From contig CAZFNV010000005.1 of NCBI GenBank assembly GCA_964520225.1, positions 1 to 56,999 on the forward strand: DNA of 56,999 bases, written 5' to 3'. The notes beneath the pieces were generated by a model. The model was not told the origin of the DNA and did no database searches. It worked only from the letters and a program-made list of their open reading frames with translations. This document shows, one piece after another, positions 4,113 to 47,199 of the stretch. Position 1 is the stretch's first letter. Every line of letters begins with the position of its first letter. A program made the translations under genes and the position numbers. The DNA comes from an uncultured Candidatus Saccharibacteria bacterium. GTDB taxonomy: Bacteria > Patescibacteriota > Minisyncoccia > Phycocordibacterales > UBA9973.

Positions 4113-5876
4113 ATGGAAAACTTTCGAAATAGAATTCGCCAGTCGAGACTCGCTGGCACGCTACCTACCCGAGAGGAAATGAATGGCGCCCTAGCCTCTT
4201 TTTCTAAGCGCGAGTGGACTTTCTTTATAATATTTTTTGCCACACTTTGTGTCAGCACGTTACTGCTACTTAACACCATCAACCAATTCTTTATGGTGGA
4301 TACACCAGCGAGAGGCGGAAGCATTTCTGAAGGAATGGTAGGAACCCCTAGATTCGTCAATCCAATACTAGCAACTTCGCTTGCTGACCAGAGCGTAACC
4401 ACCTTGGTGTATTCTGGTCTTATGAGAAAAAATAGCGAGGGCGTGCTAGTGCCCGATCTGGCTGAGAAGTACGAAATCTCTGAAGATGGTCATATGTACA
4501 CCTTTACCTTAAAAGACAACTTGAAATTTCACGACGGCGAACCACTGACCACGAGCGACATATTATTTACTATAAACAAAGCTAAGGACCCCATAATCAA
4601 GAGCGCTCAGAAGCCCAACTGGGACACTGTGACAGTGGAATTAATTGACGACAAAAATATCGCCTTTACTCTCAAGCAAACCGGGGCTTCTTTTCTAGAG
4701 AACACCACACTAGGTATATTGCCTGAGCATATCTGGGGCGACTCCCCTGTCGAACTTCATGAACGCAACACTAATCCAGTAGGTTCTGGACCATACTTAA
4801 TTAAAAAAGTGGGCAAACATTCTTCTGGAACAATCGAAAGTTACGAACTCTCTGCTTTTGAAAATTTTGCGCTAGGAGAACCTTATATCACGAACATCAC
4901 TCTTCGTTTCTACCAAAATGAAGAAGAGCTGGTATCAGCATTTAGAGAAGGTAAGGTTCGACAGATAAGCTCCATTAGCCCAAAGAGCGCTGACGAACTC
5001 AAAGATGAAGGCGCACGCATAGAATATGCGATCTTACCTAGAGTGTTCGGATTATTTTTTAATCAAAATCACAATCAACTCTTTACAGACAAAGCAGTGG
5101 CCAAAGCTATCAGCCAGGCCGTAGACAAAGAAAGCATAGTTCGTGAAGTCTTGTCGGGTTATGGTGTGGCTATCGATGATCCGATACCTCCTAGTATGTT
5201 GGAATACCAGAAGATGGCACGACCAAACAATACAGACAGAAGCGAGCTCTTAGAGCAGATACTGTCCGACCTAGAAAAAGCTGGCTGGAAGAAAAATCAA
5301 GAGGGATTCCTAGAGAAAACTATCACCGATAAAAATAAGAAAAGTACAACCCCGCTCGAATTCTCCATCTTTACGAGCAACGCACCAGAGCTCGCGAAGA
5401 CTGCTGAGCTCATTCAGAAGAACTTGATGGACATAGGTATGCGCGTAGATGTGAAGACTTTCGAAGCAGGCAATCTGAACCAAAATGTAATCCGCCCTCG
5501 CGAATACGACGTGCTTTTGTTCGGCCAAATCATCAACCGCGAAAGCGACCTATATGTGTTCTGGCACTCATCTCAGCGCAAAGACCCAGGACTCAACATC
5601 GCGAGCTACACCAATGCTCGAGTAGATAAAATTCTAGAAGATGCATCTACTACCACCAATCCAGAAACTCGCCGAGAGAAATACATTCAGTTTGAACAAG
5701 AGATACGTAAAGATATGCCCGCAGTATTCCTCTATAGTCCTAAATTCATCTATGTTGTATCCCCTGAGGTAAGGAATGTATCACTTCTACACACCACGAA
5801 CCCAAGCGATAGATTTCTAAATATTCACTCTTGGTATCTTAATATAGAAAAGGTTTGGCAAATATTCGTCGACTAA
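4113..5876 (+). CDS. ABC transporter substrate-binding protein, family 5 (peptide/nickel type), N-terminal TM anchor
   Basis: 587 aa; YSGLMRKNSEGVLVPDLAEKYEISEDGHMYTFTLKDNLKFHDGEPLT is a typical SBP_bac_5 core. There is no adjacent permease. Confidence 0.8.
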   Translation: MENFRNRIRQSRLAGTLPTREEMNGALASFSKREWTFFIIFFATLCVSTLLLLNTINQFFMVDTPARGGSISEGMVGTPRFVNPILATSLADQSVTTLVYSGLMRKNSEGVLVPDLAEKYEISEDGHMYTFTLKDNLKFHDGEPLTTSDILFTINKAKDPIIKSAQKPNWDTVTVELIDDKNIAFTLKQTGASFLENTTLGILPEHIWGDSPVELHERNTNPVGSGPYLIKKVGKHSSGTIESYELSAFENFALGEPYITNITLRFYQNEEELVSAFREGKVRQISSISPKSADELKDEGARIEYAILPRVFGLFFNQNHNQLFTDKAVAKAISQAVDKESIVREVLSGYGVAIDDPIPPSMLEYQKMARPNNTDRSELLEQILSDLEKAGWKKNQEGFLEKTITDKNKKSTTPLEFSIFTSNAPELAKTAELIQKNLMDIGMRVDVKTFEAGNLNQNVIRPREYDVLLFGQIINRESDLYVFWHSSQRKDPGLNIASYTNARVDKILEDASTTTNPETRREKYIQFEQEIRKDMPAVFLYSPKFIYVVSPEVRNVSLLHTTNPSDRFLNIHSWYLNIEKVWQIFVD

Positions 5877-45214: not shown

Positions 45215-45502
45215 CGCGAGCGAGCGGATTTGAACCGCCGACCTCTTCCGTGCACGTAATCCCTTATTTTCATAAAGGCGTGGACTATATCTTCACCATA
45301 AACTTTCGCTTTTAGGTGCTTTGGTATCTAGTCTCTACGGCGCCCCCGATACAAAATCGGGGTTCCCTCGGTATTCGCATACTCCGACCCTTGGTCGAAG
45401 GTTAGCCTTCACCGATATCCCAAAGAGTTTCAATCCGCCATTTCGGCGGAAAGCTGCAGTAAATCTACAGGGAAGCGCTCTAACCAGCTGAGCTACGCCC
45501 GC
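45215..45502 (-). tRNA. tRNA-Asp(GUC) interrupted by a group I intron in the anticodon loop
   Basis: Exon 1 (45502-45467) is GCGGGCG TA GCTC AGCTGGTTA GAGC G CTTCC CTGT. Exon 2 (45252-45215) is CAC GGAAG AGGTC GGCGG TTCAAAT CCGCT CGCTCGC G. Spliced, the loop is CUGUCAC and the discriminator is G73. Confidence 0.75.
45253..45466 (-). ncRNA. Group I intron (IC3-like, ORF-less, about 214 nt)
   Basis: P1 is CUGU|AG-auuua-CUGCAG, with a U.G pair at the 5' splice site. P2 is CCGCC-gaaau-GGCGG. P3 pairs CUUUGG with CCAAAG. The core CCGUAGAGACUAGAUACCAAAGCACCUAAAAGCGAAAGUUUAUGG closely parallels the Azoarcus tRNA-Ile intron core as I recall it (GUAGAGACUAGACGGCACCCACCUAAGGCAAACGCUAUGG). The intron ends in G. 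Confidence 0.75.
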
Positions 45503-46148
45503 GTATTTTTATATACTTTTCAAACTTTTCCTTCTTTCTCTCAAGAAATAAGGAACATCTACTATTATACATAATTTTGTATAAAATCAAAGAGTCTCCT
45601 GTACTGTATTTTAGGTCAAAACCTCCTTTCTTTTTTATTAGAGAACCACCTGCAATACCCATCCTCATCAATCTATCTTTAAGAGTGGCTAAAAATTTTT
45701 CACTCCCGGATGTAAAATAAGCACTCAACGTGAATGTTCGGCCTTTATTTTTGCAACCAGCCCAAACTCCCCCATCGCCATCAAAATATCCCCGAATAAA
45801 ATTCGATAAGAATTTGTCTGGAATCTTAGGTAATAATACTGTTTTACTTTTTCTCTCAGTCATACCGAGCCTCAGTAAATCTTCACACATTTCTTTACTT
45901 CCTATCTGTAGCCTATAAGAGGTTTTCCATTTTCCACTTCTTTTTCTTTTAGAAATAACGTGAGTAGAACTCACAGCAGTCTTAATCTTTTCCAATATAT
46001 CCTTGTCATTTATCTGCAAAGACCAAAACCATGTATCTCTCTTAGTATGAATCAAATTTCCATCTGCTATCAAAAAACCAAAAATATAGGCCATAACACA
46101 TGTCCATTGCTTGAAGAAATTTTTATTTATTTTTCGGTGTATAGGCAC
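45480..46148 (-). CDS. LAGLIDADG homing endonuclease (double-motif, free-standing)
   Basis: It carries two dodecapeptide motifs, YIFGFLIADGNL and IRGYFDGDGGVW. The 3' end runs 23 nt into tRNA-Asp exon 1. The start is either the GTG at 46148 or the ATG at 46094. Confidence 0.85.
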   Translation of the reverse strand: MPIHRKINKNFFKQWTCVMAYIFGFLIADGNLIHTKRDTWFWSLQINDKDILEKIKTAVSSTHVISKRKRSGKWKTSYRLQIGSKEMCEDLLRLGMTERKSKTVLLPKIPDKFLSNFIRGYFDGDGGVWAGCKNKGRTFTLSAYFTSGSEKFLATLKDRLMRMGIAGGSLIKKKGGFDLKYSTGDSLILYKIMYNSRCSLFLERKKEKFEKYIKIRGRSSAG

Positions 46149-46202
46149 ACTTATATTATACCTCGTGACAGGACAATATACTAACCACTATAATAGAATA
46201 TA

Positions 46203-46278
46203 TGGTGTCGGCGGGAAGACTTGCACTTCCGACACTGGGCTTATGAGTCCCATGCTCTACTACCTGAGCTACGCCGAC
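46203..46278 (-). tRNA. tRNA with CAU anticodon (elongator Met or Ile2), CCA encoded
   Basis: Reverse complement is GTCGGCG TA GCTC AGGTAGTA GAGC A TGGGA CTCATAA GCCCA GTGTC GGAAG TGCAAGT CTTCC CGCCGAC A CCA. The T-loop is unusual (UGCAAGU) and there is an A31/G39 mismatch. Confidence 0.75.
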
Positions 46279-46527: not shown

Positions 46528-47199
46528 CTATATATACCCGTAATTGCGAAAAATCTGCTCATATAGAGCTATGATCCTTTTAGCTTCGTGGTGTGAAAGC
46601 TCAAACGAAAGACCTTCATGGGCTATGCGGTTACGAACTGTATGCGCCTCCCAAGCGAGGCTGAGCCCACGCAATGTATCCTGATTCGCCATCTTGAGCC
46701 TGTCCCCCAGTGAATCCCCTTTAAACCCGAGGTCAACGGTCAAGTCTTCAAGCATCGAGTCAGCTTCGATGATAGCTAGCTTCCAATCGCTCGAACTCTG
46801 AGAAAAAAGATAAGTTAAGGTTTTATTCCAACGCTCGTTCTTGGACACTCCGTGCTCCTTCCTTAATTCTTCTTCTTGCTTACGTTTGTGCGCATACTCC
46901 ATCATTTCATGATGCAGGTGCTCGTGCTCCTTCTTCCTGATCTCAAACATCCGAACTGCGCAGTAGAAAATAATAGATATAAAAAATATAGACAAAATGG
47001 TCAACACTGTCTTGTAAAGTGAATATACCTCAGGGGTGGCTATGCGCATATAAACACCCTGGATAAAGCCAAGCCCTTGTCCGAAAAGGTAGTCAGGGTT
47101 CAGTAGATCAGATTTTAAAAAAGAAGCCCCTGACACAAAAACAAACAAAAAGAGTATAACCGCAAGTACTGATAGTTCAAAGGAAAATTCTTTTAGCAT
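46528..47199 (-). CDS. Hypothetical membrane protein
   Basis: 223 aa with two TM segments followed by a soluble helical domain. Confidence 0.45.
   Translation of the reverse strand: MLKEFSFELSVLAVILFLFVFVSGASFLKSDLLNPDYLFGQGLGFIQGVYMRIATPEVYSLYKTVLTILSIFFISIIFYCAVRMFEIRKKEHEHLHHEMMEYAHKRKQEEELRKEHGVSKNERWNKTLTYLFSQSSSDWKLAIIEADSMLEDLTVDLGFKGDSLGDRLKMANQDTLRGLSLAWEAHTVRNRIAHEGLSFELSHHEAKRIIALYEQIFRNYGYI

Follow-up and report, generated by a model that had tools for sequence, protein, structure and literature searches.

How does a homing endonuclease gene come to lie outside any intron, directly against and partly inside a tRNA gene that is itself interrupted by an intron with no open reading frame (ORF), and what do gene and intron have to do with one another? 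The question is raised by a LAGLIDADG gene of an uncultured Candidatus Saccharibacteria bacterium, located in a stretch of 56,999 nucleotides (nt) (contig CAZFNV010000005.1, positions 1 to 56,999) which was analysed as a whole and is referred to here as the window. The gene belongs to a free-standing selfish LAGLIDADG family which, in the ultra-small bacteria of the candidate phyla radiation (CPR), has a fixed home in the spacer between tRNA-Met(CAU) and tRNA-Asp(GUC), where the tRNA supplies its last codons and its stop. From the comparison of sequences we lean, without great assurance, towards the view that the encoded enzyme is a homing endonuclease which targets the tRNA-Asp gene and that the intron, or in other lineages an indel, provides self-immunity, which would amount to collaborative homing in cellular bacteria. 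All features of the locus lie on the minus strand, in the order tRNA-Met(CAU), spacer, ORF and tRNA-Asp(GUC).

46203..46278, minus strand: tRNA-Met(CAU), upstream neighbour and left flank of the gene-bearing spacer (ARAGORN, and the Rfam tRNA model with 57 bits)
45480..46148, minus strand: free-standing double-motif LAGLIDADG gene with a GTG start, 222 amino acids (aa) and a TAG stop at 45482..45480
45480..45502, minus strand: overlap of 23 nt between the 3' end of the ORF and exon 1 of tRNA-Asp, the stop being the TAG of GGT-TAG-AGC at tRNA positions 21-23
45467..45502, minus strand: exon 1 of tRNA-Asp(GUC), 36 nt, ending in ...CCUGU
45253..45466, minus strand: ORF-less group I intron, 214 nt, between anticodon bases U35 and C36
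45214..45252, minus strand: exon 2 of tRNA-Asp (CAC GGAAG ... discriminator G), CCA not encoded

The initial annotation had described a double-motif LAGLIDADG ORF that lies outside the intron and fills the spacer between the two tRNA genes, a reading frame which ends 23 nt inside exon 1 and an intron devoid of an ORF, and each of these points is borne out (ORF 46148..45480, overlap 45502..45480, no ORF in the 214 nt of the window intron); the start coordinate which it gave, 45467, marks the end of exon 1. The ORF is intact and begins 54 nt from the tRNA-Met(CAU) gene, it receives 7 of its codons and its stop from the tRNA, and it is the only LAGLIDADG gene of its kind in the 57-kb window.

This arrangement is not peculiar to the window. 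The protein has 1030 homologous protein clusters, nearly all of 200-230 aa and from Patescibacteria, on which account a chance ORF was rejected. With one genome scanned per species, at least 506 relatives came to light; 80 loci with 42-67% identity were retained, and all counts given out of 80 below rest on these. A tRNA-Asp(GUC) gene lies directly downstream of the endonuclease gene in 80/80 loci and the ORF ends inside it in 62/80, while a tRNA-Met(CAU) gene on the same strand lies upstream in 60/80; tRNA-Thr genes follow downstream in related loci, and likewise in the window. Among the 72 loci that could be placed by ARAGORN the most frequent overlap is 10 nt (33/72), where the stop is formed by U8-A9-G10 of the tRNA, followed by 15 nt in 8 loci, 23 nt, the variant of the window, in 7 and 21 nt in 2, and a gap separates ORF and tRNA-Asp in 18/72. 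The whole family is built so that the tRNA supplies the stop, and the 23-nt overlap is one of the less common forms of this layout. Between tRNA-Met and tRNA-Asp the spacer mostly measures 40-70 nt where the gene is absent and 640-750 nt where it is present. The element is about 650-700 base pairs (bp) in size and sits within a short spacer between two conserved tRNA genes.

Some loci of the family show peculiarities of their own. L042, labelled as a Pacearchaeota archaeon, and L007, labelled as Azotimanducaceae, have the typical tRNA-Met/endonuclease/tRNA-Asp layout under labels from outside the Patescibacteria, which may reflect either mis-binning or real transfer. The unusual tRNA-Asp D-arms of the carriers L025, L037, L042, L044 and L079 (GGGCC.GTGGA.CAGCCTGGAG...) have what we take to be an archaeal look. 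A conserved hairpin-like sequence, GCGGnnG-TAAGAGA-nnn-CTTTC-nn-CCGCTnGC, which resembles a tRNA acceptor-like stem around a small GAAA-type hairpin, occurs in L007 (~4680-4720), L034 (~4673-4710), L082 (~560-600) and, upstream of tRNA-Asp, in L189; it is located between the endonuclease gene and the real tRNA-Asp gene, and upstream of tRNA-Asp in one empty locus as well, and may be either a collapsed copy of tRNA-Asp or a processing signal. In L010 and L028 a tRNA-like 5' fragment (GCGGCTGTAGCTGTTTTGG...) follows the gene ahead of the real tRNA.

The protein itself has the properties of a compact two-motif endonuclease, and the parts of its gene to which the following refers are these.

46056..46091, minus strand: LAGLIDADG motif 1, residues 20-31, AYIFGFLIADGN, with catalytic D29; A28, D29 and G30 are invariant in the alignment
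45768..45800, minus strand: LAGLIDADG motif 2, residues 117-127, FIRGYFDGDGG, with catalytic D125; R119-G126 are invariant in the alignment
45564..45572, minus strand: ATGTATAAT, codons M193-Y194-N195, containing a perfect -10 hexamer; candidate internal tRNA promoter, 62 nt upstream of tRNA-Asp

Pfam LAGLIDADG_3 (PF14528) matches the ORF in two stretches (E=3.7e-14), which hold the two motifs FLIADGN (D29) and YFDGDGG (D125), and both catalytic aspartates are invariant in an alignment of 25 homologues. The first 18 residues form an N-terminal extension, MPIHRKINKNFFKQW, which agrees with the family consensus, and the GTG at 46148 is therefore taken as the start codon in preference to the ATG at 46094. 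The AlphaFold2 model (predicted local distance difference test 89.5, predicted template modelling score 0.88) has a pseudo-symmetric double alpha-beta-beta-alpha-beta-beta-alpha fold with helices and strands in the expected order. The top Foldseek matches are I-Tsp061I, which is the best, the bI3 maturase, I-WcaI, I-AniI and I-SceI, all with probability 1.00, and a sequence search of solved structures returned a sole and weak match, 2dch, which is again I-Tsp061I (E=8.6e-5). NCBIfam returned for the window protein only intein-host matches, all below threshold, and the 222-aa protein has no intein flanks; Rfam found no intron around the LAGLIDADG ORF, which lies wholly upstream of the tRNA intron and outside any intron. 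Judged by the invariant catalytic aspartates and the confident two-domain model, the enzyme is probably active.

The insertion in the tRNA-Asp gene is, as far as its sequence tells, a group I intron, and it is predicted to be self-splicing. ARAGORN finds the tRNA-Asp(GUC) only when introns are allowed, as i(37,214), and reads the joined exons as a canonical 75-nt tRNA-Asp(gtc). The match to Rfam Intron_gpI (RF00028) is marginal, its 50.6 bits just exceeding the gathering score of 50 (E=1.5e-11), and was obtained in E-value mode only; default ARAGORN and the gathering mode of Rfam both missed the intron-containing tRNA-Asp. The intron has a P1 in which CUGU|AG pairs with CUGCAG and a U.G pair falls on the 5' splice site, it carries the J8/7-P7 signature AAGAUAUAGUCC, and it ends in ...ACGUG with G as its 3'-terminal base. 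An alignment of 35 homologous tRNA-Asp introns yields 36 consensus pairs, of which 31 show compensatory changes as counted by our own script without a tree-aware control. Among sequencing runs the locus is present in DNA metagenome contigs only, and these contigs contain no endonuclease-free or intron-free allele of the window strain. A 232-nt 'joint' in such contigs belongs to a different tRNA with a GAU anticodon arm, and the contigs are mostly cross-matches of other tRNAs. Insertions of 180-270 nt in the anticodon loop are also seen in further tRNA genes of Patescibacteria when ARAGORN is allowed introns, namely in tRNA-Met CAU of L022, L030, L038 and L070, tRNA-Thr GGU of L063, tRNA-His GUG of L069 and tRNA-Arg GCG of L080, and tRNA introns thus appear to be common in Patescibacteria and not peculiar to tRNA-Asp.

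How closely is the gene tied to the intron? The intron is present in 35/80 carriers (~44%) and absent from 45/80 (six of the loci were read directly), and the gene therefore does not need the intron. An estimate that does not start from the gene comes from a blind sample of metagenome tRNA-Asp genes, which were drawn by an exon-1 pattern, blind to both gene and intron, and of which 106 were scorable. The gene or a recognisable part of it is found at 9/106 of these loci. Gene and intron occur together in 7, the intron without the gene in 2, the gene without the intron in 2 and neither in 95, a strong association (Fisher p=5e-8, odds ratio ~166) which is also seen in the subset with tRNA-Met synteny (3/1/2/53 in the same order, p=0.001). 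The comparison of relatives with and without ORF and intron which the initial annotation had envisaged thus turns up all combinations.

In one tRNA class, carriers that have no intron differ from non-carriers at another position of that tRNA. In this testable class, defined as TAGCTCAACTGGTTAG ... CCTGT, both intronless carriers of the blind sample have an extra base after GGTTAG (GGTTAG-T/C-AGC), and the standard GGTTAGAGC with a spacing of 8 nt is present in all 95 intronless non-carriers. The testable class of the genome set holds 14 carriers with the intron and the standard 8-nt spacing and 5 that are intronless, have the extra base and hence a spacing of 9 nt. When both sets are combined, the site is disrupted in 28/28 carriers, 21 (14+7) by the intron and 7 (5+2) by the insertion, against 2/97 non-carriers; in other words, an uninterrupted standard tRNA-Asp site is found in 0/28 carriers. 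The 1-nt insertion alone is present in 7/7 intronless carriers and 0/95 non-carriers (p=5e-11). On a neighbour-joining tree of the endonucleases the insertion loci, which have either T or C and differing acceptor stems, are scattered among intron-bearing neighbours, and the insertion must therefore have arisen or been acquired repeatedly. The intron is thus apparently one of at least two solutions to the problem of immunity, the other being the 1-nt insertion in the D-loop.

The family also shows the marks of a selfish life cycle. In the genome set of 80 loci, 69 copies appear to be intact and internal stops interrupt 8; the copy in L082 is a pseudogene with a frameshift. C-terminal footprints of 20-31 codons abut a standard tRNA-Asp in L121, L170, L091, L111 and L197, all of which are scored as empty, and in two of these, L111 and L197, the ATGTATAAT piece persists as a footprint 9 nt before tRNA-Asp. 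The TGTATAAT of some empty spacers was considered as a native promoter and rejected, as it is what remains, at the DNA level, of the endonuclease codons I-M-Y-N. Patchy presence, pseudogenes and footprints together form the pattern of invasion, decay and loss that is expected of a homing endonuclease gene. The empty loci L110, L122 and L123 contain a GAGCACCCGCC-nnG-GCGG fragment about 40-60 nt upstream of an intact tRNA-Asp; this fragment resembles a tRNA-Asp anticodon arm with an altered loop and may be the remnant of an older rearrangement.

Together with the allele patterns, the sequence in front of the gene suggests a target. Two features are located between tRNA-Met and the start codon.

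46165..46186, minus strand: GGTTAG-tatattgt-CCTGTCAC, with zero mismatches, a mimic of the presumed target and proposed endonuclease operator over its own promoter
46155..46160, minus strand: TATAAT, a -10-like box 6 nt before the GTG start, in a position conserved across loci

The letters and the 8-nt spacing of the mimic are those of tRNA-Asp positions ~18-38 in the intronless form, and the mimic includes the insertion point of the intron, CCTGT|CAC. Allowing up to 2 mismatches, the 57-kb window has no other such match. With the same tolerance it occurs within 150 nt upstream of the start in 38/80 loci, compared with 0/1580 random windows from the same loci, and in 24/38 exactly 16 nt separate its end from the start codon; it is absent from the endonuclease-negative loci of the blind sample. 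The middle 8 nt are TATAAT-like, and after the mimic comes a second TATAAT, often as TGnTATAAT, which ends 6 nt before the start codon, a placement that predicts a leaderless or near-leaderless endonuclease mRNA. Since the mimic retains GGTTAG even beside a resident tRNA that reads GGTTAA, it is no mere duplicate of the adjacent tRNA. A decaying tRNA-Asp half-gene was rejected as an explanation, as the mimic is conserved across endonucleases that are only 42-67% identical, keeps its fixed 16 nt and has only its middle replaced. It was likewise rejected as a part of the native tRNA-Asp promoter, since it is missing from the spacers of endonuclease-free loci, which are heterogeneous. Opposite to the endonuclease gene, on the plus strand, a promoter-like GTGACA-18 nt-TATAAT with 11/12 matches spans window positions 46165-46194 (+); its GTGACA, a -35-like box, is the reverse complement of letters within the CCTGTCAC of the mimic, and the site points toward the opposite-strand tRNA-Met at 46203-46278.

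A site that looks like a binding site and covers a promoter might also belong to a protein that is no longer mobile, retained by the host either as a maturase of the tRNA-Asp intron or to regulate the tRNA operon by binding to DNA. The association of gene and intron agrees with such a role, as does the presence of the bI3 maturase and of the bifunctional I-AniI among the structural matches. However, the 45 intronless carriers have nothing to mature, and a maturase as the main function was rejected for this reason; conversely, L186 and L138 have the intron but lack the protein. Patchy distribution, pseudogenes and deletion footprints are at variance with a gene kept by its host, and the invariance of both catalytic aspartates would be unexpected in a pure maturase or repressor. 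We consider domestication very improbable.

The mechanism that we favour instead, with the enzyme as an active homing endonuclease, can be set out as follows. The enzyme would recognise about 22 bp in the ordinary tRNA-Asp gene, GGTTAG in the D-loop followed by 8 bp and CCTGTCAC in the anticodon loop. This candidate site spans 6+8+8 = 22 bp; LAGLIDADG enzymes usually recognise sites of about this length, in which the central bases are read with weak base specificity. Chromosomes without the endonuclease would be cut at this site, and repair from a carrier would copy the gene, 20-40 bp upstream, together with the resistant tRNA version of the donor. The carrier chromosome, for its part, would have to be free of any cleavable site. 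The intron would achieve this in the window and in ~44% of carrier species by dividing CCTGT|CAC in the DNA, and since it would be spliced from the RNA the tRNA would be unharmed; in other carriers the 1-nt insertion after GGTTAG would alter the spacing of the half-sites. At the intron-bearing loci this would be collaborative (trans) homing. The mimic in front of the gene would probably be a site that is bound and not cleaved, through which the enzyme regulates its own expression, and this is the most speculative step of the proposal.

Several observations weigh against this mechanism. The recognition site is deduced only from the mimic and the allele patterns, and the intron site lies about 8 bp off the centre of the putative 22-bp target, unlike in classical pairs of intron and endonuclease. 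Part of the conservation of the mimic could be due to promoter function and not to protein binding. The intron is present without the gene in L138 and L186, the latter being a clean case (tRNA-Met, 62 nt and an intron-bearing tRNA-Asp). In the carriers L016 and L030 the tRNA-Asp lacks the intron and matches GGTTAG-N8-CCTGTCAC perfectly; both belong to a subclade that has no mimic, in which the gene abuts tRNA-Met and mostly ends short of the downstream tRNA, and whose specificity may differ. For the carrier D-loops GGTTAA, GGCTAA, CGGTAG and GGAGTG there is no endonuclease-free background, which leaves their label as immune variants uncontrolled. The counts of gene, intron and alleles are not phylogenetically corrected. 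Finally, the similarities among endonucleases and among introns are uncorrelated (28 loci; rho 0.09, Mantel p=0.2). This argues against endonuclease and intron as one long-term co-inherited unit, and a long-lived composite element of the two was dropped for want of co-phylogeny, although the nearest endonuclease relatives of the window, L046 and L002, also hold its nearest introns (78-81%). The pairing of gene and intron would be re-made and not inherited as a block, which fits selection for the pairing and weakens simple co-transfer.

The same lack of correlation would fit, and the uncorrected counts leave room for, gene and intron as independent residents, two unrelated selfish elements which both favour one conserved tRNA gene and whose co-occurrence reflects shared lineage history within a clade rich in such elements. 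This is quite improbable given that the intron, the +1 allele and other alleles are interspersed across the endonuclease tree, that the association holds within one narrow tRNA class and within conserved synteny, and that the +1 allele is only found with the endonuclease gene (7/7 versus 0/95). The initial annotation had considered both possibilities. Its suggestion of collaborative homing is supported by the association (p=5e-8) and by the 0/28 uninterrupted sites, and qualified by a gene that is independent of the intron in 45/80 carriers and by the uncorrelated similarities; its alternative, an independent invasion of the spacer, is disfavoured by the comparative data if taken as purely independent, and yet the gene does exist with or without the intron.

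A further explanation takes the enzyme to read the junction between the empty spacer and the 5' end of tRNA-Asp, its own insertion point, in the manner of classical LAGLIDADG enzymes, so that insertion of the gene destroys the site and makes further immunity unnecessary, and treats the intron and the D-loop insertion as neutral passengers that are co-converted within 40 bp. The right edge of the element is indeed fixed at the first tRNA bases in most loci, co-conversion of flanking markers is usual in homing (PMC3984707), and half of the carriers have no intron, all of which would follow naturally. The spacer upstream of tRNA-Asp, however, is not conserved between lineages, so that half of such a site would be variable. 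Hitch-hiking also predicts some carriers with a standard uninterrupted site, of which the testable class holds 0/28, and it leaves unexplained both why a conserved mimic covering all of tRNA positions 18-38 should lie ahead of the gene and why endonuclease and intron show no co-phylogeny. Targeting of the junction is thus unlikely, and the tRNA-Asp gene itself is preferred as the target.

The overlap of an ORF with a tRNA raises the question of how both are expressed. The codons for M-Y-N near the end of the ORF are written exactly as ATG TAT AAT in 54/54 loci with the MYN motif, compared with 73% TAT among Tyr codons and 77% AAT among Asn codons elsewhere in those ORFs, and since the synonymous sites are invariant, the -10 hexamer within ATGTATAAT is constrained at the DNA level; it may start a separate tRNA transcript. 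A single transcript for the endonuclease mRNA and the tRNA precursor, which the initial annotation took to be implied by the layout, is possible but not implied, as the gene has its own promoter-like boxes and the internal -10 hexamer lies 62 nt before the tRNA. If a read-through transcript is made, its cleavage by ribonuclease P (RNase P) would strip the endonuclease message of its stop, because the stop codon lies inside the tRNA, and maturation of the tRNA and translation of the endonuclease would then compete on one molecule. The complete picture is put forward tentatively: a cellular system, present in at least 506 species genomes, in which a LAGLIDADG enzyme would attack an essential tRNA gene from its 5' end, carriers would escape self-cleavage by an intron or a 1-nt insertion, the enzyme would read a mimic in its own promoter and RNase P processing would exclude translation.

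Free-standing homing endonucleases and collaborative homing are already known. In cyanophage S-PM2 the endonuclease F-CphI cooperates with the psbA intron (Zeng, Bonocora and Shub 2009; reviewed in PMC3984707), and in T-even phages mobE is paired with the nrdB intron and I-TevIII (PMC2790892). As at the locus described here, the free-standing gene adjoins a gene with a group I intron that has no ORF or a defunct one. Unlike those examples, the present family occurs in cellular CPR bacteria, encodes a LAGLIDADG and not an HNH or Endo VII-like enzyme, concerns a tRNA and not a protein gene, and overlaps its putative target gene; in many lineages an indel appears to replace the intron, and cleavage is here predicted from sequence. 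SegB of phage T4 is a free-standing GIY-YIG homing endonuclease encoded inside the T4 tRNA gene cluster (PMC2330249). It resembles the present gene in its location between tRNA genes and promotes the inheritance of its own tRNA region by intronless homing, but it differs in enzyme family and in its phage host and has no tRNA overlap, intron or promoter target mimic. An intron-encoded PD-(D/E)xK enzyme targets the anticodon region of a bacterial tRNA gene with a group I intron, as is proposed for the enzyme of the window; its gene, however, is inside its intron, whereas the gene of the window is outside the intron and upstream of exon 1. Insertions in CPR rRNA genes carry LAGLIDADG genes and CPR genomes are rich in them, in a survey that is confined to rRNA insertions and does not mention tRNA (PMC11270868).

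I-Tsp061I and I-DmoI, from archaeal rRNA introns, share the compact two-motif fold of ~200-220 aa, I-Tsp061I being the best match in both sequence and structure, but the identity is only ~20% and those genes are embedded in introns of rRNA genes. I-TevI, as Edgell et al. are said to have found in 2004, represses its own gene by binding to an operator which is similar to the homing site and lies across the promoter. The mimic described here is likewise a look-alike of a homing site over the gene's own promoter, putative from its sequence, in a different enzyme family and host. A LAGLIDADG gene linked to tRNA-Asp in CPR bacteria was not found in full-text searches of the literature, and the host group, enzyme family, tRNA target, tRNA-borrowed stop, alternative indel allele and promoter mimic appear to be new.

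Collaborative homing has been proposed as the path from ORF-less introns and free-standing endonucleases to mobile introns, and it rests on two phage examples. With the present family of loci it would reach into cellular bacteria and take in a LAGLIDADG enzyme and a tRNA gene; the family offers hundreds of natural replicates in differing states, with gene and intron, gene and indel, intron alone, footprints of the gene, or an empty site. A testable 22-bp target and three predicted resistant forms follow from the model, which also offers a selective reason for the tRNA introns and odd D-loops of CPR genomes. If it is true, endonuclease pressure, and not only intron mobility, would explain the introns in CPR tRNA-Asp genes, and the loci would represent a natural and abundant intermediate on the Bonocora-Shub route to mobile introns. 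They would also exemplify a new way for a selfish gene to lodge on an essential one with neither intron nor intein, by docking at its 5' end, borrowing U8-A9-G10 as the stop and leaving RNase P to free the tRNA. For annotation it follows that gene callers will truncate or miss such ORFs and that default tRNA finders miss the split tRNA-Asp.

Two further features of the window may be recorded. A predicted membrane protein of 223 aa (...AWEAHxxRNxIAHE...) without a Pfam match is encoded at 46528-47199 on the minus strand, adjoining the tRNA-Met genes, and a similar C-terminal motif is encoded at the matching relative position upstream in the distant loci L154 and L186. At the edge of the window, positions 1-345 on the minus strand are the 5' end of a 16S rRNA gene which is cut by that edge, and which near positions 75-85 of the Rfam model has ~60 nt where the model has ~10, an expansion typical of CPR.

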